A stretch of DNA of 52,385 bases. Source: a virus. Lineage: Duplodnaviria; Caudoviricetes. The notes below the pieces were generated by a model. The model did no database searches. It was given only the letters and a program-made list of their open reading frames with translations, and was not told the DNA's origin. The stretch is from positions 1 through 52,385 of IMG/VR virus record IMGVR_UViG_3300022602_000137; one strand, written 5' to 3'. Position 1 is the first letter of the stretch. The number at the start of each line of letters is the position of its first letter. Positions 4,292 through 39,945 of the stretch are shown here, piece by piece. The translations under genes and the position numbers were made by a program.

Positions 4292-4579
4292 TTATCTTTG
4301 TTGTAAAAGTGGACAGGCAATTGTGAAGAAACTGAGTTCCTTTTCACTTTCAAAACCAATAATAGTATTATAAACTATTGTATTGGTATTGTCTAGTTCT
4401 ATTCCCTGCCCTATATAGTACCTATTATTTAAGTTATGGCGTATCCATTGATCAACAGATTTGAGTAAGTTTGGATTATAACGATCTAGGGTAGTATATT
4501 TAAAATGCGGACAGGCAAACTCGACCCTCCGTAAGTCAAAATAATTTAGAGGATTAGGTTTGCCTGTCTTTAATGCCAT
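4292..4579 (-). CDS. hypothetical phage protein
   Basis: 95 aa, TAATG coupling to upstream VWA gene. Confidence 0.75.
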   Translation of the reverse strand: MALKTGKPNPLNYFDLRRVEFACPHFKYTTLDRYNPNLLKSVDQWIRHNLNNRYYIGQGIELDNTNTIVYNTIIGFESEKELSFFTIACPLLQQR

Positions 4580-5763: not shown

Positions 5764-5794
5764 TTCTGCTCCTGTTTTCTTACTGTATGTATAT

Positions 5795-5823
5795 ATTATA
5801 ACACCTCCCGAAGGAGGTGTCAA
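5795..5823 (-). promoter_or_regulatory. consensus sigma70 promoter whose spacer overlaps a C(UUCG)G hairpin
   Basis: TTGACA-17nt-TATAAT on minus strand; ACACCTCC-TTCG-GGAGGTGT. Confidence 0.85.
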
Positions 5824-5839
5824 TTGGTACTAAACCAAA

Positions 5840-6931
5840 TTACTTCTCAGTTGCTTGGCTAATATACTTACCAAATTTAGCATGGAACTCGTCAAAACAC
5901 TTGATCTCATCTGGGTCCAAAGGCAACTTGTAAGTTGACAATGCTAATTTAGTACCCATAATAACCAATTCTGTTTCAAAATTGTCCATAACAAATTGGA
6001 AGAAGTTATTTACTTGTTCGTTCCAATTTTTAGCTTTCTTATCGCAAGCATCTTTTAATTCATAGCACAATGCTACAGTTAAAGAGTACATAGCTGAAAT
6101 TTCTTTACTATCCATCTTTTTAACTTTACCTGACAAGATATCAGTTGGGTTAGGCATTTTGCTAGCATGTTTACGGTGCGCCATAAACTTAATAGCAAGA
6201 CCTTCACCAATTGAGCCAGAAACTAAGTCAGTTAGCGTATCTGAGTCAACATCGTCGTCAACTAGCAATTCGCTTACAAATGACCAAGAGCGTGGAGTAG
6301 CAAAAGCACGTGAACTAGACTTCGGATCAAAATCGTACAAGTCTTTTTTACTAAAAGTAAGGAAGCCAACTACGTCTTTATGGATCTTGTTTTCAGCCGC
6401 CCATTCAAAATAGTCATCCCAGTCAACTGCCATTTCTAAGTGAACGAAACGGTTAGCTAACGGAGCAGGCATACGATATGTAACACCCTTGTCAGTTTCT
6501 CGGTTACCAGCGGCAACCATTACCACGTTATCTGGCAATTCATATGTACCAACCTTACGGTTAAGCACTAGTTGATATGCGGCAGCCTGTACGCTAGGTG
6601 CGGCACTATTCAATTCATCCATAAACAAGATGATTTGTTTGTGATTAGCGGCAAATTCTTTGCTTGGCAATTCTGAAGGAGGTGCCCAACGCATTGTACC
6701 ATCGTTGGAATCGAAATATGGAATACCTTTAATGTCAGTAGGTTCCCAAAGACTCAAACGAACGTCGATAACATGAGCATCTAACTCAGTGCCTAACTGC
6801 TTGATAATATCGGATTTACCAATACCTGGGGGACCCCAGATAAAAATTGGTCGTTTACTTTTTAGAGCCTTACGCAAAGAACGTTTTGCGCCTTTTGGGC
6901 CAACTGTACGATTGACTAGTTCTGAAGCCAT
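5840..6931 (-). CDS. MoxR/dynein-related AAA+ ATPase
   Basis: Walker A GPPGIGKS, Walker B ILFMDE, AAGN, PLANRF, TPRSW. Confidence 0.92.
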   Translation of the reverse strand: MASELVNRTVGPKGAKRSLRKALKSKRPIFIWGPPGIGKSDIIKQLGTELDAHVIDVRLSLWEPTDIKGIPYFDSNDGTMRWAPPSELPSKEFAANHKQIILFMDELNSAAPSVQAAAYQLVLNRKVGTYELPDNVVMVAAGNRETDKGVTYRMPAPLANRFVHLEMAVDWDDYFEWAAENKIHKDVVGFLTFSKKDLYDFDPKSSSRAFATPRSWSFVSELLVDDDVDSDTLTDLVSGSIGEGLAIKFMAHRKHASKMPNPTDILSGKVKKMDSKEISAMYSLTVALCYELKDACDKKAKNWNEQVNNFFQFVMDNFETELVIMGTKLALSTYKLPLDPDEIKCFDEFHAKFGKYISQATEK

Positions 6932-11095: not shown

Positions 11096-11263
11096 CTAGA
11101 TTTCCGTACGACCAATAAACCATCTGCGAGCAAATTTGCTATACCTTACTCGATATAATTTATTACCTAATCTAATTCTAAATCCAAAACTACTAATGCT
11201 AGTTAACGGATAAAAATTTATACCGTTACTAACTTTATCACCTTCGTGTCTAAAATATATCAT
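11096..11263 (-). CDS. small hypothetical protein (not in ORF track)
   Basis: 55 aa MIYFRHEGDK..., TGATG coupling to queE stop, fills gap. Confidence 0.6.
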   Translation of the reverse strand: MIYFRHEGDKVSNGINFYPLTSISSFGFRIRLGNKLYRVRYSKFARRWFIGRTEI

Positions 11264-12117
11264 CAAGTTCCCCACTCATTTTTAAATAACGGTACTTGTA
11301 GTCTGTCGCTATAACGTAAGCCATGTTTCATAGCCATGTCAGCAACGGCTCTGTTATTAAGAGCATAAACGCTTTCAACACCACCAACTGGCATTAAATA
11401 GACATGTCCTTTAAATCCTGCGGCACGATATTCGCTTGTGGCTTTAAGAGCGTAATCTCGATCTGCCTCTGTAGAAATAACAAACTTTAAGTATGCTGTG
11501 CCTACTTGTTCATATTCGCAAACTACTTCTGGCAGTATTGCTTCTTCCCACTTTTCTCCACTACACGGAAGTTTAGCACTTACGCTAAATGTAATCTCGC
11601 GATTCTTCCACTTGCTCCATTCTTGTAAATATGATTTGAACTCTGGAGTTAATTTTTGAGTACCGTTTGTCTCAAACGTAATCTCTTTTAGTCCTGCCAT
11701 TTTAGGATGATCTAACAAGTCTGGATAAGCACGTTGCCAACCTAACAAAGGCTCGCCACCTGTAATAACCAGATGTTCATCTAACCATTCTCCGTGCGGA
11801 AGAATTTCCATAATACGGTCTGTAATGGCATCGCTAGTAAGCATTGGCGATAAATCTTTAAAAGTAGGATGCCAACTAGCATAGCTATCGCAACCTGTAG
11901 AAACTAAAGGAAGTTCGTTATAAGTTTGCCACTTATTATACTTGATTTGTTTCTCAGCTAATACATCTGCTTCTCCGCTTATTGTACCCAGCGGCATGCC
12001 AAAGCCAGCACATTTAAAGTTACAACCGAATGTACGTAAGAAAACAGACGGAACACCCATGTACCGTCCTTCACCTTGAATTGAATAAAACAATTCTGCT
12101 ATTTTTAATTTACTCAT
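11263..12117 (-). CDS. queE: 7-carboxy-7-deazaguanine synthase (radical SAM)
   Basis: ELFYSIQGEG..G.PSVFLR, CNFKC...GCDS, VITGGEP, FETNG, RLQ near C-terminus. Confidence 0.9.
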   Translation of the reverse strand: MSKLKIAELFYSIQGEGRYMGVPSVFLRTFGCNFKCAGFGMPLGTISGEADVLAEKQIKYNKWQTYNELPLVSTGCDSYASWHPTFKDLSPMLTSDAITDRIMEILPHGEWLDEHLVITGGEPLLGWQRAYPDLLDHPKMAGLKEITFETNGTQKLTPEFKSYLQEWSKWKNREITFSVSAKLPCSGEKWEEAILPEVVCEYEQVGTAYLKFVISTEADRDYALKATSEYRAAGFKGHVYLMPVGGVESVYALNNRAVADMAMKHGLRYSDRLQVPLFKNEWGT

Positions 12118-12578
12118 ACACAATCACCTTGTTCCGCTAATTTACCTGTTGCTGACTTTTCTTTACGGTCTTCTTTAAACAGTTTAACATCTTTAATAGC
12201 AGATTTCAATGTTTCTGAGTAGTTAAGAGCTTGTTGTTCGGTCATAGTGACTGTAGTTTGGGCGGTAATAGTACCGGTTATCCAAACTTCCCAAGTTAAT
12301 TTAGCTTTACGAATTAAACTGTTAATAAGATCTTTCCAAAACCAATCAAATTCTTCTAACCAAACATTTTTAATATCATAACGTTTTTCAAATGTGTCAG
12401 TCCAGTAGTTTGTTTTAACAGTGGAATAGATGTTTACGTTAACACCCATCTCATCTGCTTCGACTTCTACTGTTTGATCGTGATAATCTTGTCCGCAACC
12501 ACAAGTAACTTTATACCACTTACTATTACCAAAATCGTTTGTTTTTAAAATGCCTTCTGCCGGTGTTTGTGCTTTCAT
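12114..12578 (-). CDS. hypothetical phage protein
   Basis: 154 aa with CGCG..H motif. Confidence 0.75.
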   Translation of the reverse strand: MKAQTPAEGILKTNDFGNSKWYKVTCGCGQDYHDQTVEVEADEMGVNVNIYSTVKTNYWTDTFEKRYDIKNVWLEEFDWFWKDLINSLIRKAKLTWEVWITGTITAQTTVTMTEQQALNYSETLKSAIKDVKLFKEDRKEKSATGKLAEQGDCV

Positions 12579-12793: not shown

Positions 12794-13022
12794 ATCTAGC
12801 CTTTTCTAATTCTAATTTTCTTATTTTGGATTTTAATTCCGCAACATCTTGCGTTAAACTTTGATTTAAATTTTTTGATATTTTTAATTCTTCAGTCAGT
12901 TCAGTTTCGAGTTCTTTTAACAACCGCTTTTTATATTCACGGTCGCTGTCAAATCTCCAATTATGGCCAACAAGGATTCCTAAACCCATTACAATTAAAA
13001 GAAGTATTAAATCACTAGTCAT
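12768..13022 (-). CDS. membrane-anchored coiled-coil protein
   Basis: N-terminal hydrophobic helix then heptad-rich segment. Confidence 0.7.
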   Translation of the reverse strand: MTSDLILLLIVMGLGILVGHNWRFDSDREYKKRLLKELETELTEELKISKNLNQSLTQDVAELKSKIRKLELEKARYDNSKRPN

Positions 13023-13783
13023 CGCGGAGCAAACTCCTGTTGTAGTTTAATATTGTCAAAGAATTCTTTCTTTGTATTACCGTCGGTATTGAACGCACCT
13101 TTGAGTACTGTTGTCTGTGTTAGACTAGAGTGTGCCATAATACCGCGATTCTCGCAACACCCGTGAGTTGCTTGAATGTATACTGCTACGTTTTCTGATT
13201 CTGTGGCTTTTTGGATTTCCCTAGCAATGTCATTACAGAGTTCTTCTTGTAACGTGCCACGGCGAGCACACCACTGAGCGATCCGAGTATACTTAGATAA
13301 ACCGATAAGTTTGTTAGCGGCGATAATGCCAATATAAGCAACACCACTAACAGGCTGATGGTGATGACTGCACATGCTTCGTAGCTCAGAGCGAACCACA
13401 AGCATACCCTCATAGCGGTCTTCTGAATCGTTTGGAAATGCTGTTGCGTCTGGTCCTGCTTCATAACGTCCTGCCATTATTTCATTAAAATACATTTTAG
13501 CTAGTCGTCTAGCAGTGCCTTTTGAGTTAGGATCGTTTTCACGATCAATAAGCAATCGATCTAATACTAGTTCAAAGGCCTCTGTTGCTTCATCGATTAA
13601 TCGTTCTTTTTTCTGTTCGTCGACATATTCGCTAATATTGTCTCCAGCCCAGAAACGTTTGCCTTCGCGTTTCATTTGAAAACGAATGACATCTGCTAGA
13701 TGTGCTTCTTTGTAGCCTTTGTCGCTCATATCATCTGCGCCTTTAAGTACGTTTTGAAGGTCTTCTGTTGTAAATGTTGTCAA
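13019..13783 (-). CDS. folE: GTP cyclohydrolase I
   Basis: TARRLAKMY, SMCSHH, IGLSK, LQE, HGCCENRG; TTG start with GGAG RBS. Confidence 0.95.
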   Translation of the reverse strand: MTTFTTEDLQNVLKGADDMSDKGYKEAHLADVIRFQMKREGKRFWAGDNISEYVDEQKKERLIDEATEAFELVLDRLLIDRENDPNSKGTARRLAKMYFNEIMAGRYEAGPDATAFPNDSEDRYEGMLVVRSELRSMCSHHHQPVSGVAYIGIIAANKLIGLSKYTRIAQWCARRGTLQEELCNDIAREIQKATESENVAVYIQATHGCCENRGIMAHSSLTQTTVLKGAFNTDGNTKKEFFDNIKLQQEFAPR

Positions 13784-14612: not shown

Positions 14613-14806
14613 TTTTTAGATCCAAATCGAACACCCGTGATTGGCGCAATTAACAAGAAATATGCTAACCAAGTTTGCCATGTATATGGAATAGCCAATG
14701 CTGGAAACAATGTGTTTAATGCCCAAATTCCAACAAGTGGGCCAAACACTACGGCAATTATAATCAATACAATGCCAAATATAAGTTTAAGTAATGCTGA
14801 GGTCAT
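14609..14806 (-). CDS. small membrane protein
   Basis: Two hydrophobic segments; start MTSALL overlaps PRTase stop. Confidence 0.7.
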   Translation of the reverse strand: MTSALLKLIFGIVLIIIAVVFGPLVGIWALNTLFPALAIPYTWQTWLAYFLLIAPITGVRFGSKK

Positions 14807-15324
14807 AACCAAAAATCCTCCCAGGGATAAACCAACCAACAATCTTCTTCTGCTTTATTGACTTCCCATACCGAGTAGTCAACTGTTTCTTTGCTAGCTA
14901 GATTGTTAGTAAGCGTAGCAAAGCGTACATTTTGTCCCCATACATGTCCCCAGCGAGCATCGTTGGGTAAACAACTAGATTGCCAATCTTGTTTGATCCA
15001 AGCAATCGTTGATCCTTGATCATTAATATCATCAACTACAAGGATGTTTTTACATAGTGGATCCCCATCCTTTTCAGCGGCGTTAAATCCATACGCATCT
15101 TCAGCCATGCCGCAGTTACTAACAGTATCGCCACCGTCACGTAAGCTAACATCTAAGGACTTCATAGGCACTTCTAAATATTGACTTAACAGTACAGCAG
15201 GAACTAAACCGCCTCGAGTAATTCCAACAATGTAATCAGGTCGCCAATTACTATTATTAATTTGTCTAGCAATATCTAAGCAAGCACCCTCTACTTGTTG
15301 CCAACTATAATAAATTTTCTTCAT
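14803..15324 (-). CDS. type I phosphoribosyltransferase (xanthine/guanine PRT-like)
   Basis: SWQQVE, IVGITRGGLVPA, PRPP loop ILVVDDINDQGST, C-terminal WLVYPWE. Confidence 0.88.
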   Translation of the reverse strand: MKKIYYSWQQVEGACLDIARQINNSNWRPDYIVGITRGGLVPAVLLSQYLEVPMKSLDVSLRDGGDTVSNCGMAEDAYGFNAAEKDGDPLCKNILVVDDINDQGSTIAWIKQDWQSSCLPNDARWGHVWGQNVRFATLTNNLASKETVDYSVWEVNKAEEDCWLVYPWEDFWL

Positions 15325-16559: not shown

Positions 16560-16980
16560 AATGATCTTTCACTAGTTTATAGGTTGTTACAAATTTTTCG
16601 TATGCTATTTTTAATGCCGGATATTGCTCACACATTTCCTTAACACGATCAAAATCAGGAAATGCATTGACCCACTCAACAGGAAAAGATTGTGACCATT
16701 CATAACCGGTTCCTGCTCCTCCACTACCGATCGGACCAATGCTAATAGTTCCAGATGATGTGATACCGTTGCTGATAACATATCCACCACCACCACCGTT
16801 AGATATAGTTATATTACCAGCCCCACTGCCACTAATTCCAGTGCCGGTATAGTAAACGGAACTGGTATTGCTACTAGTTATTGTAATAGCGTCTGGCAGT
16901 ATTGTGCTTACATCTTGCGCTATAAAACCAGTATCACTTGATATTGTCAAGTAGTCCTGTTGCACTAAAGAATCGTTCAT
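16525..16980 (-). CDS. hypothetical phage protein, Gly/Ser/Thr-rich
   Basis: Low-complexity N-half, C-terminal YPALKIAYEKF; start uncertain. Confidence 0.7.
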   Translation of the reverse strand: MNDSLVQQDYLTISSDTGFIAQDVSTILPDAITITSSNTSSVYYTGTGISGSGAGNITISNGGGGGYVISNGITSSGTISIGPIGSGGAGTGYEWSQSFPVEWVNAFPDFDRVKEMCEQYPALKIAYEKFVTTYKLVKDHYDTPEDERPRP

Positions 16981-18025
16981 GTAAATCCCTTGCTTGTTTG
17001 CGGATGGACGGTATCCTTGTAGAATAATTATCCATATGTTCCATTATCTTACCGCATAAATCTGGTCTATATACTGTGTAGGCGTCGTAACTTTCAGTCC
17101 ACTTACTAGGATACTTGAACGTATCGTAATACATTTCTGTATAACTTAAACGATCCGGCACCATGGGAATAGCATCGACTACCGCACCTTCATAGCAACT
17201 AATGCCTAAAGTTTCTTGTAAGTTAGCACTAAACACCATCTTTGCTTCGCCTAACAAGTTATGATATTCATTTTTTGTTAGTTGTTGATCCTGACACACT
17301 ACAAACTCATACTGCGGTAAGTGTGTAGCTAAGTCTCGAAAAATCTCAACTTGCTTCTCTGGTGCGATACGATGCGGAAAAAGAATAAGGTCACGCTTGG
17401 GCATATTCTTATACATGGTTAATGTATCTTCCATATACTCCATTGGCCAACCTGTGCGTACATACTTTTTATCTTCAAGCATATCTGCTTTATCCTCTTC
17501 TTCCCAAGGATTTTCAATCATTCCATCATTAAGTAAATTATGATGAAACATATCAATATGGAACTGAGTAGCAAAATAATTATGATCAAATGCCGCAAAG
17601 AAACTTTTCTCAGCGTGTCGTACCCAGGGTTTATTGCCAACTAGTCTACCTAAGAAGTCTTGAGGATCATATGATCCAGCATGCCATAAGCCATGTGTAG
17701 TTACTGGAATATTCAGTAGTTCACTCATGTACTTTAAGTTTATGATACCAGGGTGCCAAGCATCAGTAAAGATAAAGTGATCGCCAGGTTGAACTGATCC
17801 GGAGCAAAATAGGCGCCCCATTTGCTCAACTTGTCGAGACTTATATATATTGGTGCCACCAAAATTAAGAAAAGCACCAGGAGTAGTGGCTGTAGGAATA
17901 TCCGTAGGCCCAGATATAACTTGAACATTGTGTCCTGCCTTTCGTAAGAGAGCAGGCACATGAGTCTTCCATTGACTCGTGTACCTTGTCTCAACAGCTT
18001 CTAGATCAATTAGAAATACGGTCAT
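16934..18025 (-). CDS. GT-B fold (GT4-like) glycosyltransferase
   Basis: FPHRIAPEK donor-binding R/K segment; ETLGISCYE = E-x7-E motif. Confidence 0.85.
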   Translation of the reverse strand: MTVFLIDLEAVETRYTSQWKTHVPALLRKAGHNVQVISGPTDIPTATTPGAFLNFGGTNIYKSRQVEQMGRLFCSGSVQPGDHFIFTDAWHPGIINLKYMSELLNIPVTTHGLWHAGSYDPQDFLGRLVGNKPWVRHAEKSFFAAFDHNYFATQFHIDMFHHNLLNDGMIENPWEEEDKADMLEDKKYVRTGWPMEYMEDTLTMYKNMPKRDLILFPHRIAPEKQVEIFRDLATHLPQYEFVVCQDQQLTKNEYHNLLGEAKMVFSANLQETLGISCYEGAVVDAIPMVPDRLSYTEMYYDTFKYPSKWTESYDAYTVYRPDLCGKIMEHMDNYSTRIPSIRKQARDLHERFFSATGLLDNIK

Positions 18026-18278: not shown

Positions 18279-18668
18279 TTAGTATTTGATGAATGAACCA
18301 TTTTCTCCGTCTTCGGAGACCTCAATCCAAACCTCACGGTCTGGATACTTCTTGCTAATAGCGTCATACAGGTCGTCTGACATCATTTCGCAACTTTTAA
18401 AATCAAGATCGAGAATGTCTTGATTATAAAGGCTTTCACACCAGCGTTTAAATTGAATAAATTCAATATCACGATCGTTGTGTTTAACACTAATCCATAC
18501 TTTAAAATGGAATATATGTCTATGTGCGTTTGCTAAGAAACTAACATCGTACTCTCCTGCTGTACACAAATTAGGATCAGTAGCCGCCGCTGGATATCTA
18601 TGAATACCTTCTTTGCGAAAGGTAACCCAGATCATTTTGTTAGGTCTAATATCTTGTTTAATAATCAT
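18279..18668 (-). CDS. QueD/PTPS-like T-fold protein (divergent)
   Basis: H then HRH.F.FKV Zn-ligand pattern, IEF, SCE, IEVSED; context with folE/queE. Confidence 0.7.
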   Translation of the reverse strand: MIIKQDIRPNKMIWVTFRKEGIHRYPAAATDPNLCTAGEYDVSFLANAHRHIFHFKVWISVKHNDRDIEFIQFKRWCESLYNQDILDLDFKSCEMMSDDLYDAISKKYPDREVWIEVSEDGENGSFIKY

Positions 18669-19192: not shown

Positions 19193-19436
19193 TGCTTTTC
19201 CTTTCTTCCCAATACTTGATCATACGATTAACATCTTCCATTCTTTCTTGTACAACATCTGGTGCCGCACGTTCTAGCATTTTTAAATTATGATAACTAG
19301 GATAATGACGCAAACACCACCGTGCTTGCTCACGTATTTCTTTCGGAACTCGAGGAGTTTTTTGAGGATTAAGTAAATCTGTCAAAAATTCTTCTGTTCG
19401 TTGTAAACTTCTAAAACGTTCGTCGGGCAATGTCAT
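19182..19436 (-). CDS. small conserved-looking protein (BPSL0761-like)
   Basis: MTLPDER.R...P..PKEIR..AR..LRHYP. Confidence 0.65.
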   Translation of the reverse strand: MTLPDERFRSLQRTEEFLTDLLNPQKTPRVPKEIREQARWCLRHYPSYHNLKMLERAAPDVVQERMEDVNRMIKYWEERKSNEA

Positions 19437-21142
19437 AGCTCAAATAATGATTCGTTGAAAACAGGTTTAACCGGTTCTTTAACTACTTTTTCAATGGTTA
19501 AATTTCCTTCAAATTCAAAGTGTACATCAGCCATAGCACTAGCATTGGTAATCCTATCGCCAGTATTACCCCTAGTACCAATAATACGATCAAAGTAATC
19601 ACCATAAAATTCAACCATATCTAACGCATCTTGTCTATTATCTAGACTAAAGATTAAATCAACAATATCTTTAAATTTATTTGGTGCTGGGCTATAATCT
19701 CTGTGTGTCTTTGTTTCTGCTGTTGTAGCATCTAGCATCGCAGGAATAACACCCGAATCACTTTGACGATTAGCTTCTTGTACAGCATTACAGTGCATCC
19801 ATACATTATGACCCATCATGATAGCATAGGTAAAACTATCCCAGCTAGTACGTCCTTCTTTACCTACTTTATTTAGGTCGCCTGGTTTATAGATACAAAT
19901 ATCTTTCATTTGGACTTGATCTATAATAGGGCTAGATTCAAATTTATCAAAAATACCATCTTGTACTACAGCGTCTTTAAAAAGTCTTGTGTCTGTTGCG
20001 TATTTCTTGTCGTCTGCAGAAGCCTGCATACGGTAGACCCATTTGTCTGCGTGTGGTGTTTCGGTAGCCATGTAGATTTGTCCGTTCGCTGTTGCGAGGA
20101 AGGGACTGGCGCAATCAAAAGAGATGGTAAATTGTTCATTATGATATTTCCTTACAGCACGTTGAATGTCGGTTAATAAAACAGCCCACTCTAATTTAGA
20201 GGTGCCCAAGAAGTGCATCCAGTCTTGATGACCTTTTTCAAGAAGTCCGTCGAAACGTAAATCCACTAATCTCTTTAATACTAGGTGTACGTCACACATA
20301 TTCTGTCCACCCATAGCCCAACCATTAAATGGTTTATCATACTGCTTAGGGTCACAGAATTTTTTCATCTCATTATACCAGTTATCTGCGTCTGTATGAT
20401 TCTCACCTTGTAACACGTTTAAGAACTTACAAGCACCTGTTCGATGTTTAATCCAATATTCATTATTATATTTGGTAGCATCAACCGCTTCTTGATAACT
20501 TGATACACCTGTAGCTTTAATACCTTCTGGGCTACGGCATACCCATGCTGGGATATCGAGTACCATGCCATAATCCATATACGCATCCATCCACGCAAGC
20601 ACTTGCTCGCGCTTCTTCTGTGCCGCATCTAATTGTGCTTGATATAGTTTAGGATGATCGATTTTAGTATACTTTGGATTACCATTCTTATCTGTCTTAG
20701 GATGACCTGTAGGATGTAGTTGTGGGACTAGTTCAACGCCTCGAGCAACAGCTTCGGCCATTCGCTGAGCCACTACTGGTCCTGTTGGATCATTCCACTC
20801 ACCTTCCCACACACCTTTACCAATCTGGAATCCGCCTGAATCTCCTAGTACCCAACTAGTAGAACGATCTCTATTACGAAACATATCTTCGCCGTCATCT
20901 TTCTTAGTCATATCTAAGTTAGCATGGCCTGCCGAGTACAAACAATGATCATAATAAAATAACGCATTAGGATCTAAGTAGTTCATTGCTTCAACACCCA
21001 TTGGGCCAAAACTTGCCGGTACACGAGCCGGATCTACATAGTTACCAAAACGTTGTTTGCCTATAAATGTACTATAAAAACCAGATGTTGCTGGTAAAAA
21101 GTACGCATAATCATTTTGTGTTGCTGTTAAATTTTTATTCAT
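19433..21142 (-). CDS. TGT-superfamily guanine transglycosylase, DpdA-like
   Basis: Ordered TGT motifs GDSGGFQ, MVLDIP, NVLQG, GWAMGG, HFLG, SFDCAS; no CxCxxC Zn site; start MNKNL. Confidence 0.85.
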   Translation of the reverse strand: MNKNLTATQNDYAYFLPATSGFYSTFIGKQRFGNYVDPARVPASFGPMGVEAMNYLDPNALFYYDHCLYSAGHANLDMTKKDDGEDMFRNRDRSTSWVLGDSGGFQIGKGVWEGEWNDPTGPVVAQRMAEAVARGVELVPQLHPTGHPKTDKNGNPKYTKIDHPKLYQAQLDAAQKKREQVLAWMDAYMDYGMVLDIPAWVCRSPEGIKATGVSSYQEAVDATKYNNEYWIKHRTGACKFLNVLQGENHTDADNWYNEMKKFCDPKQYDKPFNGWAMGGQNMCDVHLVLKRLVDLRFDGLLEKGHQDWMHFLGTSKLEWAVLLTDIQRAVRKYHNEQFTISFDCASPFLATANGQIYMATETPHADKWVYRMQASADDKKYATDTRLFKDAVVQDGIFDKFESSPIIDQVQMKDICIYKPGDLNKVGKEGRTSWDSFTYAIMMGHNVWMHCNAVQEANRQSDSGVIPAMLDATTAETKTHRDYSPAPNKFKDIVDLIFSLDNRQDALDMVEFYGDYFDRIIGTRGNTGDRITNASAMADVHFEFEGNLTIEKVVKEPVKPVFNESLFEL

Positions 21143-21495
21143 TATTTCACCAAATGTTGAGCAAGCACCATACAACTAATCCAAGCCCATATAGTGTTAA
21201 ATCCTACTAGAGTAGGCAATAGTTTCTTCTCACTAGCCCAAATAAGTGTTAGGCTTGTTGCTAATGTGAAGAAATATAACCACCAAATTTGTATACCAAA
21301 AATTAGACCTGGAACAATGATAACAGCCTTAGCAAACCAGCTTAAGAATTCTACTGTGTTATAGCTTACCCAATACTCTTTTTTAAACCACATAGCATAA
21401 CATTCCTTAACCTTAGCGAATGTAATATGTCGGTATACAACTAATATCAGTAATAGCCAAACTATTGAAGCAACTGCTATTTGTATAAGGTTCAT
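21142..21495 (-). CDS. small multi-pass membrane protein
   Basis: About 4 hydrophobic segments; start MNLIQ. Confidence 0.75.
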   Translation of the reverse strand: MNLIQIAVASIVWLLLILVVYRHITFAKVKECYAMWFKKEYWVSYNTVEFLSWFAKAVIIVPGLIFGIQIWWLYFFTLATSLTLIWASEKKLLPTLVGFNTIWAWISCMVLAQHLVK

Positions 21496-21496
21496 A

Positions 21497-22228
21497 TTAC
21501 TTGCTCTGTGCTGGTAGAATGTATTCGTAAACAGCTGAACCACTATCAACTGTGATACCTAATGCGCCTGCGTCAGCAATACGCATAGTAATATCACCCG
21601 ACAGAGCTAAAATAGCTTGTACTTGGTTAACCGGCCATGACCATGTTTGTTTTAGTTTACCTGTAATACCACTTTGGAATACAAATGAACCTGCGTGTGT
21701 TGACGCATCACCAAAACTAAACACTAAGTTTCCATTGTCTGTAGACACTTGGAATACTGTTTCTTCAGTATGTGCGGCAGCCTGATATTTTAATTTTTGA
21801 ATTGCGGCCACGGTTGGTTGAAATTCAACTTCCCATGTAGCACCTTTGAACTTAACAGTTTTCAACTTTTCGTTGATAATGTCTTGATTCATAAAACGAT
21901 AGTCGTTTTCAAAGTCGCCTGTGCTATTCTGGAAGTGTAAACCTGTTGGAATATCTTCACCGTTGCGTTGTTGCGTGACTACGCTAATACCAGCACCTTC
22001 TTTGTACTCTGGACACTTCAAGTGTAAGTCTAGCTTGTTTAAGTTAGGCATACCAAATGTACCTTCAAAGGTATCAACTGGCGTGTGCGTTTTAGCGTTC
22101 AAAATAACTGAACGGTCTTCAGCCATTGACTCGATAGTTGTTTCTTTTGAGCTTGAGCTTACCTTGACCAAAGGCAAGAAGCCCAAACTATGTGTGTGTG
22201 CTACTAGGTCTTGTAAAAAGTCTTTCAT
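21497..22228 (-). CDS. DNA polymerase sliding clamp (gp45/PCNA-like)
   Basis: 243 aa, alternating alpha/beta pattern, C-terminal YEYILPA, near polB; GGAG RBS before MKDFL. Confidence 0.75.
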   Translation of the reverse strand: MKDFLQDLVAHTHSLGFLPLVKVSSSSKETTIESMAEDRSVILNAKTHTPVDTFEGTFGMPNLNKLDLHLKCPEYKEGAGISVVTQQRNGEDIPTGLHFQNSTGDFENDYRFMNQDIINEKLKTVKFKGATWEVEFQPTVAAIQKLKYQAAAHTEETVFQVSTDNGNLVFSFGDASTHAGSFVFQSGITGKLKQTWSWPVNQVQAILALSGDITMRIADAGALGITVDSGSAVYEYILPAQSK

Positions 22229-22248
22229 ATGATTCTCCATGTTTAGTT

Positions 22249-22276
22249 ATTATACAGCATTTTGTGACTATGTCAA
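22249..22276 (-). promoter_or_regulatory. sigma70 promoter for clamp/transglycosylase operon
   Basis: TTGACA-16nt-TATAAT. Confidence 0.75.
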
Positions 22277-22279
22277 GGT

Positions 22280-23047
22280 TTATTTGCGTATTTTTTCATT
22301 GTATTTTACCACTTCTTCGAGTACTGTAATAGGTTTATTTAGGTCGTTGGCATAATGAATGAACGCTTTTGTGTCTTTTGGAAAGCAAGCACCGCCAAAG
22401 CCACGGCTCATATCAGGACCGGGTACCATCATATGGCTACTGCCAATACGAAGATCATGTGTTAATACCTGTCGAACTAGGCTATATTCAGCGCCATTAG
22501 CTTGACAAATATCATACAATTGATTAAAAAATGCTACCTTAGTACTTAAGAAGCAATTAACGGCATATTTGATTGTGCTGGCTTCTATGATACTGGTATT
22601 AAAATACATTTTGCAATTTGGCAATGATTCTGTAAACAATGTTTGCCAAAATCCTTCAGGATCGTCCCCGCCTACTACCATATATTTTTGATTGGCAAAG
22701 TCTTCATTAGCAGTGGCTGCACGTAAAAATTCTGGACTATAACAAATGCTATGATCTTTAAAATCTTTGAGCAGTTGTTCTAAATAGTCCGGACGAGTAG
22801 TACATTTGATTAATATAGGTATATGTATAGGCACTTCGGCCATTACACTATAGATTTGACTAACATCACAATCACCATTTTCAGTACTAGGGGTTCCTAC
22901 ACAAATGATAATACCATCGGCGTAAGGGAAATGTTCTATTTTCGATGTTGTATATGCTGGATCTACTATGTGTATAGTATTGTTTTTGTCAATACTATTA
23001 GCAACAGCTTTACCAACGAATCCGTATCCTGCGATAATTATATTCAT
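22280..23047 (-). CDS. ugd: UDP-glucose/GDP-mannose 6-dehydrogenase family protein (lacks C-terminal domain)
   Basis: GYGFVG Rossmann, ICVGTP, SPEFLR, K..N.FL..K..F.N, GFGGACFPKD. Confidence 0.9.
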   Translation of the reverse strand: MNIIIAGYGFVGKAVANSIDKNNTIHIVDPAYTTSKIEHFPYADGIIICVGTPSTENGDCDVSQIYSVMAEVPIHIPILIKCTTRPDYLEQLLKDFKDHSICYSPEFLRAATANEDFANQKYMVVGGDDPEGFWQTLFTESLPNCKMYFNTSIIEASTIKYAVNCFLSTKVAFFNQLYDICQANGAEYSLVRQVLTHDLRIGSSHMMVPGPDMSRGFGGACFPKDTKAFIHYANDLNKPITVLEEVVKYNEKIRK

Positions 23048-23048
23048 A

Positions 23049-25715
23049 TTAAAACTCAAATAAACTATTAAAGGTATTCTTTTCTTCGGTACTATTAATA
23101 TCCCACTTTAGAACACCAATTAGGTTATCTAACTTGTTATCGATAATAGTCTGTTCCATTTCAGCATGGTCAAAAGGTAAATCTTTAAACCATTGTGGTA
23201 AACGAAGTTCGTCGACTGGGTAAGCTACTGATGTAAAGCCTAACGGATTAGGTTTAAGTTTACATACAATAACTTTCTGACCATCAGTAATACTCATTGA
23301 GTATTTGTCGTTGTACATTCGCTTGAGTGTATTCCAATTAATACTTGCTCGTACATGACCAGGCATATTAGCCTTGCCAGCCTTCTTCTCTTTTGCTTCG
23401 TATTCTGTAATATTGTTTGCACGTTTTGGACTACCTTTCTCCCATCCTGGGCGACTTTTAAATAATGTTCGGAATTGGGTAATGTGATCAAGCACTTCTT
23501 GTTCGCTCTTACCTGTTAAAACCATTTCAAGAACATCGCTTAAAAAGTTTTGAATAAATTCTGGTGTATCACTACGCTTAAGGTCCAAGCCCATGGCCTT
23601 GATCTTACCAGGTTTACCATCTACGTCTGCCCGTTTGCCTTCCTTATCATAATAAAGAACAGCATAACGTTTCTTAGTAATGAATAATGATTTAGATCCA
23701 ACAATTTCACGACCAGCTTTGATAACTTCGCCACGTGTTTTAGGTACATGAAAAGCATCTAACATGAATTGTGGGAATGTTTGATTTACTTCGTCACCGA
23801 TTGTGTCATACAATTGGATAACAGTTTCTTTACTCCACGGAATCTTACCAGCATCAATATCTTTCTGTAAGGTCTTATATGCTGAGAAATAACAACTGTC
23901 TGTATCACCATAGATAATTGCCTTACCAGTATGATTATATTCACCTGCGATGATTTCGTTTACTTTACCAGCCATATGTTTAGCGATCTGGCGTCCTGTA
24001 AGAGTAGTGGATTGTCCAATACGCTTATCAAAGAAACGACAACCAGGATTAAGAATAGCACCATATAAGCTATTAAGGTTAATCTTTTTAACCAGTTGAC
24101 GCTTGTCCCAGTATTCTTCTTCAATTTTATTCCCCGCTTTAATTGCTTCTTTTAATTTGGCCTGCATCTCTTTACGTTCAGCATACCAACGTTTTAGCAG
24201 TCCAGGAATAACACCTTCAGTTTCGTGGCTAAAGATAGTACCATTAGCACTAAGCATCCAAGGTTGATTGCTTTCAAATATTAATCTATATACTTCAGCG
24301 GCACTTAATACATCACTATCTCCATTTTCCCAATCAATGGTGATATCTGTGCCAATTTCTTGATTCATTACAGCAGTATACTCTAATGAACCAAATATAC
24401 CTTCCCATGCCGCCGCAAATGATTTACCTTTAGCCATTTGCGTTTCAATAAAATCATCGGTCATTGTTTGACGCAACTGTCCAATGATTGTCTCTGGACC
24501 CATGTTAAGTGCTCTAATAGCTGATGGATACAGTGAGTTGATATCTAATGATCCGACCCAGTCTTGAATACCTTCCTTGGGATAAGCAACATAAGCACCA
24601 GCCGCGGCATTATTTTCTCGCTCATCCATTTTGGGACGATTAGGAACTTGGAATCCACGTCTATGGGCTTCGTTAATAATAGCCTGTTCAGTTACAGCTA
24701 CAGCACCCATTGTAGTTTGTAGCAATACTGTATTTTCATGTGCTAGTGTATTGGCAAGATCTAAAAATTTAAGTTTTTTGTCTAGATCATCTAATAGTTG
24801 ACAGTCATTGATGTTATATTCAACGAATGTTTTAAAATCATTATTATATAATTGATCTAGTGTACCTTCGTATTGTGTTTTACGTTGACCTAATTCGTAT
24901 TCAGCAATAGCATCTAGTCGATAACTATGGCGTTCTTCATATGTGTACTTACGATATAGTTCTAGACTATCTAAGTGTACACGGCCTACAAAGTCATAGG
25001 TAACTGATTGACGACCATATTTTTCATATTCTCTGCGTTTAGGAAATTGATCAAATAAACAGAAACGTCTTGTATCTTCTTTACTAAGTGTTTTAGTTAC
25101 ACGATTAACAGTATACGGGATATCAAAGCCTTCTGAGTTCCAACCAGTTAAGATATCTGCGTCTTTGATCAAATCTAAAAATACATCTAGCATCTCTGCT
25201 TCAGTTTCGTAAAGCATTACGTTATCAAAGTCTTTAACAGCTTCTTTAGCCTGCTCCATAGTTAGAGTCTTTGGTGGAATGGCTAAACATATCATGGTAT
25301 CTAACCATTGTAGCTTAACAGCAATGGCAGTAATTGGCATGAACGCATCGTCAGGTGATGCGTAGCCACGCTCTGGATCAAAGTCTACCTCAATATCGAA
25401 AAATGCTACATTTAATTTTGGAGCATCTTGATTAAGATAGTTTTCACTGAGTGTTACAAAGATTGGATTAATGTCTGCTTCGTACATTGTCTTGCCACTG
25501 TTAATGGCCATTTCTTTACGAAGTTCTTTAGTGTTTTTACAGACGATCCGTTGAACAGGATCTCCATAAATGGATTGGTGTTTACCTCTAGGATCTTTTA
25601 CATAGAAAGTGTGACGAACGGGAATGTCTCTAAATTCTCTTTCGCCTTTCTTGTTGCGTTCAACGATTCTAATAATATCGTTGTCGCGATCAAACCATGC
25701 GTCTACATAGCTCAT
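23049..25715 (-). CDS. family B DNA polymerase (gp43-like)
   Basis: Exo FDIE, GWNSEGFD, YNIND; pol DINSLYPS, KINLNSLYG, YGDTDS, KKRY. Confidence 0.98.
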   Translation of the reverse strand: MSYVDAWFDRDNDIIRIVERNKKGEREFRDIPVRHTFYVKDPRGKHQSIYGDPVQRIVCKNTKELRKEMAINSGKTMYEADINPIFVTLSENYLNQDAPKLNVAFFDIEVDFDPERGYASPDDAFMPITAIAVKLQWLDTMICLAIPPKTLTMEQAKEAVKDFDNVMLYETEAEMLDVFLDLIKDADILTGWNSEGFDIPYTVNRVTKTLSKEDTRRFCLFDQFPKRREYEKYGRQSVTYDFVGRVHLDSLELYRKYTYEERHSYRLDAIAEYELGQRKTQYEGTLDQLYNNDFKTFVEYNINDCQLLDDLDKKLKFLDLANTLAHENTVLLQTTMGAVAVTEQAIINEAHRRGFQVPNRPKMDERENNAAAGAYVAYPKEGIQDWVGSLDINSLYPSAIRALNMGPETIIGQLRQTMTDDFIETQMAKGKSFAAAWEGIFGSLEYTAVMNQEIGTDITIDWENGDSDVLSAAEVYRLIFESNQPWMLSANGTIFSHETEGVIPGLLKRWYAERKEMQAKLKEAIKAGNKIEEEYWDKRQLVKKINLNSLYGAILNPGCRFFDKRIGQSTTLTGRQIAKHMAGKVNEIIAGEYNHTGKAIIYGDTDSCYFSAYKTLQKDIDAGKIPWSKETVIQLYDTIGDEVNQTFPQFMLDAFHVPKTRGEVIKAGREIVGSKSLFITKKRYAVLYYDKEGKRADVDGKPGKIKAMGLDLKRSDTPEFIQNFLSDVLEMVLTGKSEQEVLDHITQFRTLFKSRPGWEKGSPKRANNITEYEAKEKKAGKANMPGHVRASINWNTLKRMYNDKYSMSITDGQKVIVCKLKPNPLGFTSVAYPVDELRLPQWFKDLPFDHAEMEQTIIDNKLDNLIGVLKWDINSTEEKNTFNSLFEF

Positions 25716-36562: not shown

Positions 36563-37192
36563 TTATTCTTTGACAATTCGCTCTATTTTAGCTATACTAT
36601 CGCCTAATTGCATCTTAACCATGAGTAAATTATTATCACCAGTAACATACAAGTGCTTTCCACCCCATGTTCGATCCTTAAGCAGATCTAATTTACAACT
36701 TTTAGTTAATTTAACTTTTGAATTGCTTTCTGCCCAAGAAATAAACGTACTATGCTCGTGTGAAGTTTTACCTAAAGTAATGCGAAAATCGTAATTCATC
36801 TTTGGCATTATTATAGTATTGCTAGCTAATGTAGAATTACTAGGAGGTGCGCTGATATATTTTACTTGATTTTTATCAAGATTTGTTAGCGTGGTAATAT
36901 TCTTTTTATTATTTGTATAAACACTGATCCAAGGACTCTCAACACGCACATCTATATCAGACATCTTACTTAAAGCAGATTGTAATTTAAATGCGTAGTC
37001 TAAATCTTCTTGTGTTTTAATATGAATATTTCGCCAAGTATTTACTTTAGGGTTATCTAAATTAACTTTTTTTAAATGCTCTAAAGTAGTAGTCATATCT
37101 CCGCAACGGAACCATTGTGCGCCAGAACATACCAGCACTATTTTGTACTGGTATATTCCTCTAAATAGTTTAGTTGTTGTTTTAAATTGCAT
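36563..37192 (-). CDS. hypothetical phage protein
   Basis: About 209 aa downstream of clpA. Confidence 0.75.
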   Translation of the reverse strand: MQFKTTTKLFRGIYQYKIVLVCSGAQWFRCGDMTTTLEHLKKVNLDNPKVNTWRNIHIKTQEDLDYAFKLQSALSKMSDIDVRVESPWISVYTNNKKNITTLTNLDKNQVKYISAPPSNSTLASNTIIMPKMNYDFRITLGKTSHEHSTFISWAESNSKVKLTKSCKLDLLKDRTWGGKHLYVTGDNNLLMVKMQLGDSIAKIERIVKE

Positions 37193-39464
37193 CAGGAATA
37201 TCAACTAATGATGTATTTGAATCAACAGTTAGTAATGGAACTTTTGATTCCTTAGCTTTAGTTACTAGGCAAATTTTATCATCAGCAACAGTGATAGTAA
37301 CCCATCCACCGTTTTTCAAATCACCGAATAACATTGTTCGAGCTAACTCACGTTTAATTTCTTTATCAATTACACGTTGTAGCGGACGAGCACCCATCTT
37401 ATCATCAAATCCCTTGTCAAGTAACCAATTGGTAGCCGCTTTATCAATCTTAACACGGATACCTTTATCTTTAACTTGATCTCGCAATTCATCGATAAAC
37501 TTGCTAACGATTTTAACCATTGTTTCTTTACCAAGTTTATTAAATGTAATAACACCATCTAAACGATTACGGAACTCCGGAGTAAAGAACTTTTTAAGAT
37601 CTTTGTCACTGTAATCTTTAGTTTGTGCGCCAAACCCAATAGCGTTCTTTTCAGCGTCAGCGGCACCGGCATTAGTAGTAAGGATAAGGATAATGTTACG
37701 GCAATCTGCTTTCTTACCATTAGAACCTGTAATGAATCCATTATCCATCAACTGTAATAACACAGTCATAACATCTGGATGTGCCTTTTCAACTTCATCT
37801 AACAACAATACAGCATTAGGTGCTTCTTGAATTTGTGTAATCAACTGCCCAGCATCTTCTTCAAAGCCAACATAGCCTGGAGGGCTACCAATCAACTTAC
37901 TGATGCTATGCTTCTCTTGATATTCGCTCATATCAAAACGTAGCAACTTAACACCCAAGTTTTTAGCAAGAGCTTTAGCAGTTTCAGTCTTACCAGTTCC
38001 GGTTGGACCCATGAATACAAATGATCCTACAGGTTTATTTTCTGATTTAAGGCCTGCTTGTGCTACCATAATTTTATCTACAACTTCTTGTAAAGCAAGA
38101 TCTTGTCCATATACTTGTTGTTCAAGATTTTCTTGTAGGTTAGACAAATTACTTGATTCAGTTTCGGCAATTTTCTCTTCAGGCATATTAACCATTTTAG
38201 CCAATTCAAATTGGATCTCACGTTCACCGACTACACGTTCGTCTGCTAGTTTAAGATTAAATCGAGAGCAAGCACAATCAATTAAGTCAATTGCTTTATC
38301 GGGAAGTTTTTTATCTGTTTGATACTTAACTGATAATTTAATAGAGGCATCGATAGCATCATCTTTGATCTTAACATTATGATGATTTTCGTAATACTTC
38401 TTAATACCTTTAAGGATTTGTTTAGTAACTTCGATAGTTGGCTCGTCAACAGTAATACGTTGGAAACGACGCATTAGGGCACGATCCTTTTCAAAGTGCT
38501 TGCGATATTCTTCCCAAGTAGTACTTGCCACAACTTTAATGTTGCCTTTGCTTAGAGCAGGTTTCATCATGTTGGCAAGATCGTTAGCAGAGTTGCTAGC
38601 AGATCCTGCGCCAGAGATCATATGTGCCTCATCGATGAACAGCACAGTCTTACCTTTCTTAGTTAATGCCTTTAGTACCATCTTAAAGCGTTCTTCAAAG
38701 TCTCCACGATACTTAGATCCAGCTAACATAGCTGAAATATCTAAATTGTAAACAGTATAGTCTTTTAAGAAATCTGGAACTGCCCCCTTGACAATATTAT
38801 AAGCAAGACCTTCGGCAATAGCAGTCTTACCAACACCCGGATCACCGACTAGGATCACATTGTTCTTGCTACGGCGACCTAATGCTAGAGCAATGTTTTC
38901 AAGTTCATCTACACGACCAATTACTGGGTCAATTTTATCTTTCTTAACGGCATCGTTAAGATTTGTAGTAAATGCCGCAAGTGCTTTGTTACCGCCACCT
39001 TCACTAGCACCAGCTTCTTCTTCTACCTCATCAACTGTGCTGTTTAGGTAATCATTAAATTTATCTTTATCGATTTCAGCTTGCTGGATGTAAAAGTATG
39101 CCCAGCTACGCTTCTCACCCATCATAGCAAGGAACACGTCTGTTGGCTCAATGCGTTGACGACCATTGAATAATACTTGTGTAAAAGCACGGTTAAGTAC
39201 ACGCTCAACTGCTTGTGTTTTTTTAGGTTTAACTACAACATCTTCGATAGTAATTTCGCTAGATTTATTTTGTAGATAATCTGATAAATTTTGTTTAAGA
39301 GTGTCAACATTTGAACCAAACCCCTGAACTGTATTAGTAAAACTTTCATCAGCTAGCATGGCAAACAGTAGGTGTTCTATTGTCAGATATTCATGATGTA
39401 GTTTTTTGGCAGTTTCAATTGCTCGTTCAAATACTGCTTGTAAATTGTCGCTTGGTTCAACCAT
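37182..39464 (-). CDS. clpA: ATP-dependent Clp protease ATP-binding subunit
   Basis: Clp N-domain HEYLTIEHLL, two AAA modules (GDPGVGKT, GPTGTGKT), GSKYRGDFEER, IGF loop, GARPL. Confidence 0.95.
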   Translation of the reverse strand: MVEPSDNLQAVFERAIETAKKLHHEYLTIEHLLFAMLADESFTNTVQGFGSNVDTLKQNLSDYLQNKSSEITIEDVVVKPKKTQAVERVLNRAFTQVLFNGRQRIEPTDVFLAMMGEKRSWAYFYIQQAEIDKDKFNDYLNSTVDEVEEEAGASEGGGNKALAAFTTNLNDAVKKDKIDPVIGRVDELENIALALGRRSKNNVILVGDPGVGKTAIAEGLAYNIVKGAVPDFLKDYTVYNLDISAMLAGSKYRGDFEERFKMVLKALTKKGKTVLFIDEAHMISGAGSASNSANDLANMMKPALSKGNIKVVASTTWEEYRKHFEKDRALMRRFQRITVDEPTIEVTKQILKGIKKYYENHHNVKIKDDAIDASIKLSVKYQTDKKLPDKAIDLIDCACSRFNLKLADERVVGEREIQFELAKMVNMPEEKIAETESSNLSNLQENLEQQVYGQDLALQEVVDKIMVAQAGLKSENKPVGSFVFMGPTGTGKTETAKALAKNLGVKLLRFDMSEYQEKHSISKLIGSPPGYVGFEEDAGQLITQIQEAPNAVLLLDEVEKAHPDVMTVLLQLMDNGFITGSNGKKADCRNIILILTTNAGAADAEKNAIGFGAQTKDYSDKDLKKFFTPEFRNRLDGVITFNKLGKETMVKIVSKFIDELRDQVKDKGIRVKIDKAATNWLLDKGFDDKMGARPLQRVIDKEIKRELARTMLFGDLKNGGWVTITVADDKICLVTKAKESKVPLLTVDSNTSLVDIPDAI

Positions 39465-39945
39465 TTAATTTCCTTTGTTTTTTCCGTGCCATTTTTAATT
39501 TTAAATCACTTACATATTCTGTAAATGTAATACCGTCTAAATGATCCAATTCGTGTTGGAAACATCTAGAATCGATTCCCTCAAGTTCTATTATACACTG
39601 TTTGCCTGTGTTGTCAAGATACATGGCAGTAATTTTATTGCTTCTTTTGACTTTGAGCCATAAGTTAGGAAAACTCAAACAGCCTTCTTCGGCATCTATG
39701 TCGGCATTGTCGCCTACAAGAATAGTAGGATTGAAGAAACCCATTTCTCTTCCATCTTGTAGGCGCATGACAAATACTCTACGTAAGAGTCCAACTTGAT
39801 TAGCGGCAAGTCCAATGCCATTATTAGCCTTCATTGTTTCAAGCATTTCACGCTCAATAACTGCGGCATTAACGTGTTGATCAAAATCCCAACGTTCAGC
39901 TTTTTGCTTTAGTATTGGATCAGGTTCTTTTACTAAGTTCATCAT
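39457..39945 (-). CDS. def: peptide deformylase
   Basis: GIGLAANQ, EGCLS, QHELDH. Confidence 0.96.
   Translation of the reverse strand: MMNLVKEPDPILKQKAERWDFDQHVNAAVIEREMLETMKANNGIGLAANQVGLLRRVFVMRLQDGREMGFFNPTILVGDNADIDAEEGCLSFPNLWLKVKRSNKITAMYLDNTGKQCIIELEGIDSRCFQHELDHLDGITFTEYVSDLKLKMARKKQRKLNG

Follow-up and report, generated by a model that had tools for sequence, protein, structure and literature searches.

How would a phage enzyme that exchanges bases in DNA be brought to the DNA of the phage? The question is raised by a locus in a 52,385-nucleotide stretch of viral DNA (Duplodnaviria, Caudoviricetes; IMG/VR record IMGVR_UViG_3300022602_000137, positions 1 to 52,385), here called the window, which is part of a jumbo phage genome with jumbo relatives of up to ∼300 to 380 kb. 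On the minus strand, which carries all genes discussed here, the window encodes a family-B DNA polymerase (PolB), a sliding clamp and a protein resembling tRNA-guanine transglycosylases (TGT-like protein). A sequence-only reading had noticed that PolB and the TGT-like protein end in nearly the same peptide and proposed that the latter rides the clamp. Having followed this peptide through related loci, cultured phages and structural models, we consider it likely that the enzyme docks on loaded phage clamps via its tail and modifies newly replicated phage DNA. Since the enzyme tail carries the peptide by which the polymerase presumably holds the clamp, DNA modification would probably be tied to replication.

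The polymerase gave matches to Pfam DNA_pol_B (E = 2.4e-36), DNA_pol_B_exo1 (2.7e-20) and phrog_262 (3e-202), and phmmer aligned its residues 24 to 835 with RB69/T4-type polymerase chains at 1.5e-59. Its C terminus reads ...STEEKNTFNSLFEF (ending NTFNSLFEF), and that of the TGT-like protein, which is numbered throughout as a 580-aa open reading frame (ORF), reads ...KEPVKPVFNESLFEL (ending PVFNESLFEL). The two ends are nearly identical, as had been pointed out, and the accompanying statement that no other protein of the window ends in this way also held, with SLFE[FL] being terminal in only these two among the ORFs of at least 80 aa. The window and 82 related loci together contain 5416 six-frame ORFs of at least 50 aa. 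An ending of the form [LFM]F[DEG][FLVWIMY]?$ occurred in 119 of them, namely, 80 PolB proteins, 33 TGT-like proteins, 2 fragments that hold the C terminus of a split PolB and 4 short ORFs in antisense orientation. Of the 82 top-scoring PolB matches from the window and the related loci, 79 conformed to the ending NTFN[SKNQ][LF]F[ED]F$; two of the other three were N-terminal fragments from split PolB genes, and the third was Vibrio phage 2.275.O, whose PolB ends ..NNTDLFDW. Searching five larger relatives for the exact DNA pattern encoding L-F-[DE]-F-stop returned nothing besides PolB and one 13-codon chance ORF.

The PolB gene of phage PA5oct is split by a Hef-like homing endonuclease gene (L001:1-4834), and that of one metagenomic locus (L064) appears to be split too; in both, the clamp-type ending remains on the C-terminal piece.

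The catalytic domain of the TGT-like protein ends near residue 540 and is followed by a linker of ∼35 residues that is predicted to be disordered. Beyond residue 539, the only positions invariant among 23 close homologues are N544, A549, L577, F578 and E579, the last three of which belong to the peptide. An FxxLF(D/E) peptide was present in the tail in 77/77 metagenomic loci with a complete gene (enzymes 71 to 100% identical). It was terminal in 15 (..LN[END][SN]LFE[FLV]), terminal but one residue shorter in 17 (..TFDSLFE, ..NFMDLFE) and internal in 45, where ..[MQ]F[SA]xLFDEV precedes an acidic stretch of ∼35 residues ending KLDxLE.... The lineage is far larger than this set and accounts for 7934 of 8000 scored candidates and for 869 clusters at 50% identity. 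Of 102 full-length cluster representatives, 42 had hydrophobic-x-x-[LM]F within their last 60 residues, compared to 9.7 on average and at most 19 when the tails were shuffled 500 times; of equally long windows taken from the protein bodies, 3% contained the pattern. Similarly, [LM]F lay within the last ten residues of 33 of the 102 representatives, with 5.5 expected. Conservation of the motif in homologues, on which the proposal had been made to depend, is therefore borne out both by the related loci and by the divergent sample.

Three cultured phages fall inside this lineage, namely, PA5oct, Vibrio phage 2.275.O and Phosso. In PA5oct, PolB ends ..HFDSLFGW and, in the enzyme EST35_0316, an acidic extension of 31 aa comes after ..SFNSLFDV, and in Vibrio phage 2.275.O the corresponding ends are ..NNTDLFDW and ..NNNDLFGW. 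The tail peptide thus changes together with the polymerase's own ending in these two phages. In Phosso, PolB ends ..TTFNDLFTF and the enzyme ends ..KIVEGLF, which is a partial and weaker match (LF$ versus LFTF$). In the whole genome of PA5oct, a motif pattern matched only PolB and the enzyme, and in that of Vibrio phage 2.275.O it matched PolB twice, the enzyme and two further ORFs.

Other ORFs of these two phages carry ends of a related kind. In Vibrio phage 2.275.O (MG592671.1), a 74-aa ORF with a Cys/His-rich stretch (118713-118937, +) ends ..LMLSSLFEW, and NVP2275O_469, the gene right after the enzyme gene (332034-333146, +), starts MFNELFDF; both are possible further clamp clients. In PA5oct (MK797984.1), a 200-aa ORF (143938-144540, +) has an acidic run and then a terminal ..PDPFKLFS, and a 531-aa ORF (128846-130441, +) ends ..DEDDDSMPMPFLF; such hydrophobic-acidic termini might represent additional docking peptides.

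A second conserved C-terminal element, made up of the acidic stretch and a KLDxLE-type end, follows the internal peptide in the 45 loci mentioned above and in PA5oct, with KLDxLEASVHDIT, KLNQLELQVKE and KLTELEQGLDN as examples (L014-L082, e.g., L026; PA5oct L001:5998-7620). Several distant representatives carry it as well, and the form encoded in the window is without it. This element may be a second docking site.

The protein encoded between PolB and the enzyme is a clamp by its predicted structure. Its AlphaFold2 model, built from 33 homologues, reached a predicted local distance difference test (pLDDT) value of 86.4 and a predicted template modeling (pTM) score of 0.85, and all PDB rows listed by Foldseek were PCNA-type clamps (best E = 7.3e-11; TM, 0.60 to 0.70), from yeast, human, Leishmania, plants, archaea and African swine fever virus. 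The clamp fold supposed for this gene, the PCNA fold with its two topologically similar domains in each protomer, was thereby confirmed. At the level of sequence, a PDB search gave no match to a solved clamp, and the protein has no curated Pfam family (a single weak Pfam match stayed below the cutoff) and belongs to a PHROG of unknown function; homologues are labeled PCNA or sliding clamp in two phage records. The window also encodes a clamp-loader large subunit (Table 1).

The predicted complex was modeled from the clamp and tail residues 536 to 580 of the TGT-like protein, both given as alignments. It scored an ipSAE of 0.77 (0.77, 0.75 and 0.81 in three runs), compared to 0.02 for the best of three controls, and the runs showed at least 81% contact agreement with a partner pLDDT of at least 54. 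Of 80 solved complexes, 58 reached the mark applied to ipSAE, as did 2 of 110 mismatched pairs; these counts are approximate and serve only as a rough benchmark since our own alignments were used. Residues 567, 569 to 574 and 576 to 580 of the tail contacted the clamp, with contacts made by F573, L577, F578 and the preceding strand. On the clamp side, the modeled interface consisted of residues 42 to 44, 129 to 134, 161 and 162, 201, 203, 222, 224 to 226 and 243 to 247, among which 129 to 134 form the low-confidence connector between the two domains and 243 to 247 are C-terminal. We take this site to be the usual peptide groove of PCNA.

The model of the TGT-like protein itself (AlphaFold2; pLDDT, 89.6; pTM, 0.88) retrieved tRNA-guanine or archaeosine transglycosylases in all 36 PDB rows listed by Foldseek down to rank 37 (best E = 4.8e-7), and generic TIM barrels appeared in the list only from an E value of ∼1e-3. 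Among viral models in BFVD, the neighbors included proteins of Achromobacter phage Motura, mycobacteriophages and other phages that bear the name tRNA-guanine transglycosylase or queuine tRNA-ribosyltransferase, and also the DpdA3 protein of Cellulophaga phage phiST (CGPG_00065; rank 25; E = 0.021). In hhalign, a profile of the family aligned with 82 columns of phiST DpdA3 (probability, 80.7%; E = 1.3e-5). The residues D112, S113 and G115 (GDSGGFQ), P209, H321, L323 and D354 (FDCASPF) did not vary among 67 diverse homologues; D112 and D354 may represent the catalytic aspartate pair of TGTs. Taking the fold together with the pathway context described below, we read the enzyme as a DpdA-like DNA transglycosylase, and the 569- to 580-aa protein is most likely a long, divergent member of the TGT/DpdA superfamily. 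The transglycosylase identity given in the sequence-only reading is thus upheld by fold and gene context, but not by any match to a sequence family.

Membership in the DpdA3 subfamily was considered and rejected: the hhalign alignment to phiST DpdA3 covers only 82 columns, the two proteins differ in length (580 versus 259 aa) and tblastn found no DpdA3 phage. In Campylobacter phage CP220, neither the family profile nor phiST DpdA3 gave a match, and only gp43 ends [DE][DE]W; since the DpdA3 of CP220 was not located, this search says nothing on clamp docking by DpdA3.

The gene neighborhood points to 7-deazaguanine chemistry. The window encodes FolE and a QueE-like radical-SAM enzyme (Table 1), whose top five NCBIfam matches were QueE models without exception (E = 6.8e-17 at best), although none of them reached the curated cutoffs. 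A small T-fold protein matched phiST CGPG_00067 (3e-15) and PA5oct EST35_0318 (4e-40) in blastp and carries, as LANAHRHIF, the LxxxHRHxF motif described as the signature of DpdL, a proposed 7-carboxy-7-deazaguanine decarboxylase (PMC10516641). In five larger relatives, including one complete genome of 383 kb, we found QueE (5/5), FolE (5/5) and PTPS/QueD (3/5) but not QueC (0/5), and the presence of QueE and FolE without QueC is a pattern tied in the same article to DpdL phages (PMC10516641). The combination of a DpdL-like protein, FolE and QueE with no QueC in the five relatives suggests that the inserted base would derive from 7-carboxy-7-deazaguanine, possibly being 7-deazaguanine itself, rather than from preQ0. 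The enzyme homologues of PA5oct and Vibrio phage 2.275.O are likewise flanked by QueE or by QueF, QueC and FolE. The DNA of PA5oct was described as resistant to several restriction enzymes, which its authors read as modified G (PMC12191111), and a survey of jumbo phages credits PA5oct with "a deazaguanine synthesis/incorporation system" (PMC7824862).

From the observed features of the locus we infer clamp binding, replication coupling, DNA as the substrate and restriction to phage DNA, which would fit together as follows. The phage clamp loader would place the clamp at primer ends during phage replication. The tail peptide FNESLFEL, mimicking the C-terminal peptide FNSLFEF of PolB, would enter the clamp groove, which is made up of the clamp's interdomain connector, its C-terminal tail and the interdomain pocket. 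Tethered in this way, the enzyme would slide on new phage DNA and swap guanine for a 7-deazaguanine base supplied by the phage FolE, QueD, QueE and DpdL proteins, so that the exchange would be coupled to replication, more processive and biased to phage DNA. A bolder extension, which we offer tentatively and regard as rather doubtful, is that a large DpdA-like branch in jumbo phages acts as a clamp-tethered replisome accessory that scans nascent duplex, achieving near-complete replacement of G and discrimination between phage and host DNA, while the second element (acidic linker and KLDxLE) binds a further part of the replisome and makes the enzyme a two-handed "toolbelt" client.

Several observations weigh against clamp-tethered modification. 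The motif pattern used on whole genomes was written after the data had been seen, and its counts are near shuffle expectation (for PA5oct, 2 observed versus 1.24 expected), so that only the identity of the matched proteins is telling. Because many PCNA-peptide complexes have been solved, the success of the complex model may reflect likeness to these rather than the affinity of this pair. In a comparison of four distant clamps, identical positions are no more frequent in the modeled interface (3/22) than elsewhere in the protein (27/225). With 60 of the 102 divergent representatives lacking the stricter motif, the tail peptide is common but not universal in the family. The similarity of the enzyme to TGTs is moderate (TM on target, ∼0.5), Pfam (with E values up to 1), PHROGs and NCBIfam gave no match for it, neither phmmer nor a 67-sequence profile found a match for it in the PDB, and the Pfam TGT family PF01702 was matched by only 2 of the 67 homologues, at an E value of 0.043 or worse. 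Finally, phiST DpdA3 (259 aa) is without such an ending, and it is credited with complete replacement of G (PMC10516641); clamp docking is hence not needed for high-level modification in every phage.

Could the clamp be bound for another purpose, with the enzyme acting as a glycosylase for repair or proofreading or as a regulator in competition with PolB for clamps, or could the protein be a tRNA transglycosylase whose tail has an unrelated role? The function is not given by any sequence family, the solved structural relatives are only tRNA enzymes and the family has no invariant cysteines of a Zn site, all of which leave room for such roles. We nevertheless consider them unlikely, since FolE, QueE and DpdL lie near the gene as they do in phages described to have 7-deazaguanine DNA (PMC10516641), the viral structural neighbors include phiST DpdA3 in addition to phage proteins named as TGTs, the DNA of the related PA5oct is resistant to restriction and a clamp tether makes little sense on a tRNA enzyme.

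It is also conceivable, and in our view quite improbable, that the shared peptide docks not the clamp but another replisome partner of PolB, such as the single-stranded DNA-binding protein, the helicase-primase or the clamp loader, in which case recruitment to the fork would stay. That the peptide is common to PolB, that the enzyme gene sits in replication modules and that the modeled clamp interface shows no extra conservation would all fit such a partner, and the acidic linker and KLDxLE element found in most forms points to at least one further partner in any event. Against it, the hydrophobic-acidic C terminus of T4-family polymerases is described as a ligand of the clamp (PMC2988020), and the PolB of the window is of that type. 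Moreover, the complex model, even if it may reflect likeness, puts the peptide in the usual clamp groove far above its controls, and the clamp gene is the constant upstream neighbor of the enzyme gene. That the endings resemble each other by coincidence or as a functionless by-product of composition is strongly disfavored: the peptide is short and the post hoc pattern finds ∼1 chance match per jumbo genome in shuffles, but all 77 related loci keep the peptide in a disordered tail that is variable elsewhere, divergent relatives carry it four times as often as shuffled tails do and, in Vibrio phage 2.275.O, it varies along with the end of PolB.

Docking of the enzyme on the clamp would closely resemble what is known of the gp45 clamp of T4 and RB69 and its clients gp43, gp55 and gp33. 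In both cases, a short hydrophobic-acidic peptide ends a variable linker and is common to the polymerase and a non-polymerase protein, and a clamp, a clamp loader and a T4-type polymerase are encoded by the phage. The RB69 clamp was cocrystallized with the last 11 residues of its polymerase, which sat in a hydrophobic patch on the face where the C terminus lies, and the clamp-binding ends of T4 are described as interchangeable, with an internal copy still able to function (PMC2988020). Unlike in T4 and RB69, the client here is a putative DNA base-exchange enzyme rather than a transcription factor (gp55, gp33), the clamp is PCNA-like by fold without a sequence match to solved clamps and the peptide is internal in most relatives, where it is followed by the second conserved element.

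With the DpdA family (bDpdA and DpdA1 to DpdA4), the enzyme shares the TGT-type fold and a weak profile match to phiST DpdA3, and the neighborhood of FolE, QueE and DpdL near the polymerase gene recalls that described for phiST (PMC10516641). In contrast to phiST DpdA3, it is twice as long (569 to 580 versus 259 aa) and has a clamp-type tail. Pfam TGT models do not match it, and tblastn reached no named DpdA phage.

A phage DNA-hypermodifying enzyme that sits on the replication clamp and modifies DNA as it is made was proposed before, for the T4 alpha-glucosyltransferase (alpha-GT) and gp45. Contradicting the earlier claim made in vitro for alpha-GT, a preprint reports that gp45 interacts with neither alpha-GT nor the beta-glucosyltransferase (beta-GT), whether in vitro or in vivo (bioRxiv 10.64898/2025.12.06.692756). 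Unlike T4 alpha-GT, the enzyme of the window holds an explicit copy of the clamp peptide of the polymerase and is thus a clearer and more easily tested case. Eukaryotic and archaeal PCNA has clients acting on DNA bases, among them a maintenance DNA methyltransferase and uracil-DNA glycosylase, with peptides of the PCNA-interacting (PIP) type. As in these, the tether here would be a short peptide, with modeled contacts in the groove under the interdomain connector; the enzyme class, the base-exchange chemistry and the viral origin differ, and the peptide is of the T4 hydrophobic-acidic kind rather than of the canonical PIP consensus.

What would be a familiar device for clamp docking is here carried by a client of a new class, whose enzyme family is very large and for the most part unannotated. 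Searches of open-access papers and bioRxiv yielded no link between DpdA and a clamp, and the word "clamp" is absent from the main texts of the key DpdA literature; the supplements of PMC10516641 and PMC7824862 may already list the family as a DpdA or as an "incorporation" enzyme. Phage 7-deazaguanine modifications are held to be inserted by DpdA enzymes after replication (PMC10516641). For one large lineage of these enzymes, a clamp-docking peptide would explain, in a concrete way that can be tested, how phage DNA is told from host DNA and why modification levels span <0.1% to 100%. It would also widen the clientele of phage sliding clamps by a new class and revive, in a cleaner form, the disputed idea that hypermodifying enzymes ride the replication clamp. 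One prediction is that testing such enzymes heterologously may not succeed unless the cognate clamp and clamp loader are present as well.

Table 1. Coordinates, strand and basis of assignment of the features of the window
Feature	Position	Strand	Basis
Family-B DNA polymerase (PolB), T4/RB69 type, 888 aa	23049-25715	-	Pfam, PHROG, phmmer
PolB C-terminal peptide FNSLFEF, presumed clamp-binding end	23052-23072	-	
UDP-glucose/GDP-mannose dehydrogenase-like ORF, 259 aa (short)	22280-23059	-	Pfam UDPG_MGDP_dh 6.5e-22; N-terminal domain 4.6e-11; phrog_9148
Sigma-70 consensus promoter-like site, TTGACA-16-TATAAT, 12/12	22249-22276	-	Directly upstream of clamp gene; consensus match
PCNA-fold sliding clamp	21497-22240	-	Predicted structure; 247 aa from ATG 22240
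Small, very hydrophobic membrane-like ORF between clamp and TGT-like gene	21142-21494	-	Sequence only
TGT-fold, DpdA-like putative DNA 7-deazaguanine transglycosylase, 580-aa ORF	19433-21175	-	Predicted fold and gene context
Disordered C-terminal tail, residues 543-580 of TGT-like protein	19436-19549	-	pLDDT <50
TGT-like tail peptide FNESLFEL, proposed clamp-docking motif	19436-19459	-	
DpdL-like T-fold protein, 129 aa, three genes downstream of enzyme	18279-18668	-	blastp, signature
GTP cyclohydrolase I (FolE), first step of 7-deazaguanine synthesis	13019-13783	-	Pfam PF01227 1.3e-39
QueE-like radical-SAM enzyme (7-carboxy-7-deazaguanine synthase)	11263-12123	-	NCBIfam, Pfam Radical_SAM 5.8e-4
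gp44/RFC-like clamp-loader large subunit	46181-47179	-	Pfam AAA 2.9e-16, DNA_pol3_delta2 2.9e-14, Gp44_lid 1.9e-7

The arrangement of these genes is well kept. Clamp and enzyme genes are adjacent in 79/79 loci that hold both, with a gap of ∼0 to 1188 nt, and the order PolB-clamp-enzyme is found in PA5oct, where EST35_0314 is the clamp, in Vibrio phage 2.275.O and in all metagenomic loci; in Phosso, the enzyme gene adjoins those for primase and DnaB. In the window, the clamp gene does lie between the PolB and TGT-like genes, as the sequence-only reading stated, but not alone, the dehydrogenase-like ORF and the small hydrophobic ORF being there as well. The former overlaps the end of PolB by 11 nt. 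The latter has no family match in Pfam, PHROGs or NCBIfam; since the gap between clamp and enzyme genes varies among relatives (∼0 nt in ∼20 loci, ∼172 or ∼350 nt in others), it is an optional insert. A megablast search of the region 19433-25715 against a phage collection gave no match.

The three genes from the clamp on are spaced by 2 nt and then by -1 nt. The true start of the clamp is probably ATG 22228 (243 aa), which stands 6 bases past a GGAG and had already been favored, rather than ATG 22240 (247 aa). The TGT-like gene probably starts at ATG 21142 (MNKNL...), giving 569 aa and overlapping the stop of the membrane-like ORF as TAATG, and the nearest homologues, of 559 to 569 aa, agree with this start. 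The promoter-like site upstream of the clamp is conserved: within 90 nt upstream of the clamp gene in 83 loci, the best score was 12/12 in 35, 11/12 in 30, 10/12 in 17 and 9/12 in 1. This conservation makes it plausible that the clamp and TGT-like genes are cotranscribed from one promoter.

Further along the same strand, a 363-aa protein of no known family (16934-18025, -) is 40% identical to PA5oct EST35_0317, which is encoded directly after the enzyme gene in that phage, and a phosphoribosyltransferase is encoded at 14803-15324. Together with the dehydrogenase-like ORF, these two may serve further base processing or sugar chemistry. Finally, the window encodes a ClpB-type disaggregase and a DnaJ-type cochaperone, and a MoxR-like AAA ATPase that adjoins a metallopeptidase/VWA (DUF2201) protein (37182-39464, 39920-40774 and 4579-6931 for this group, all -).

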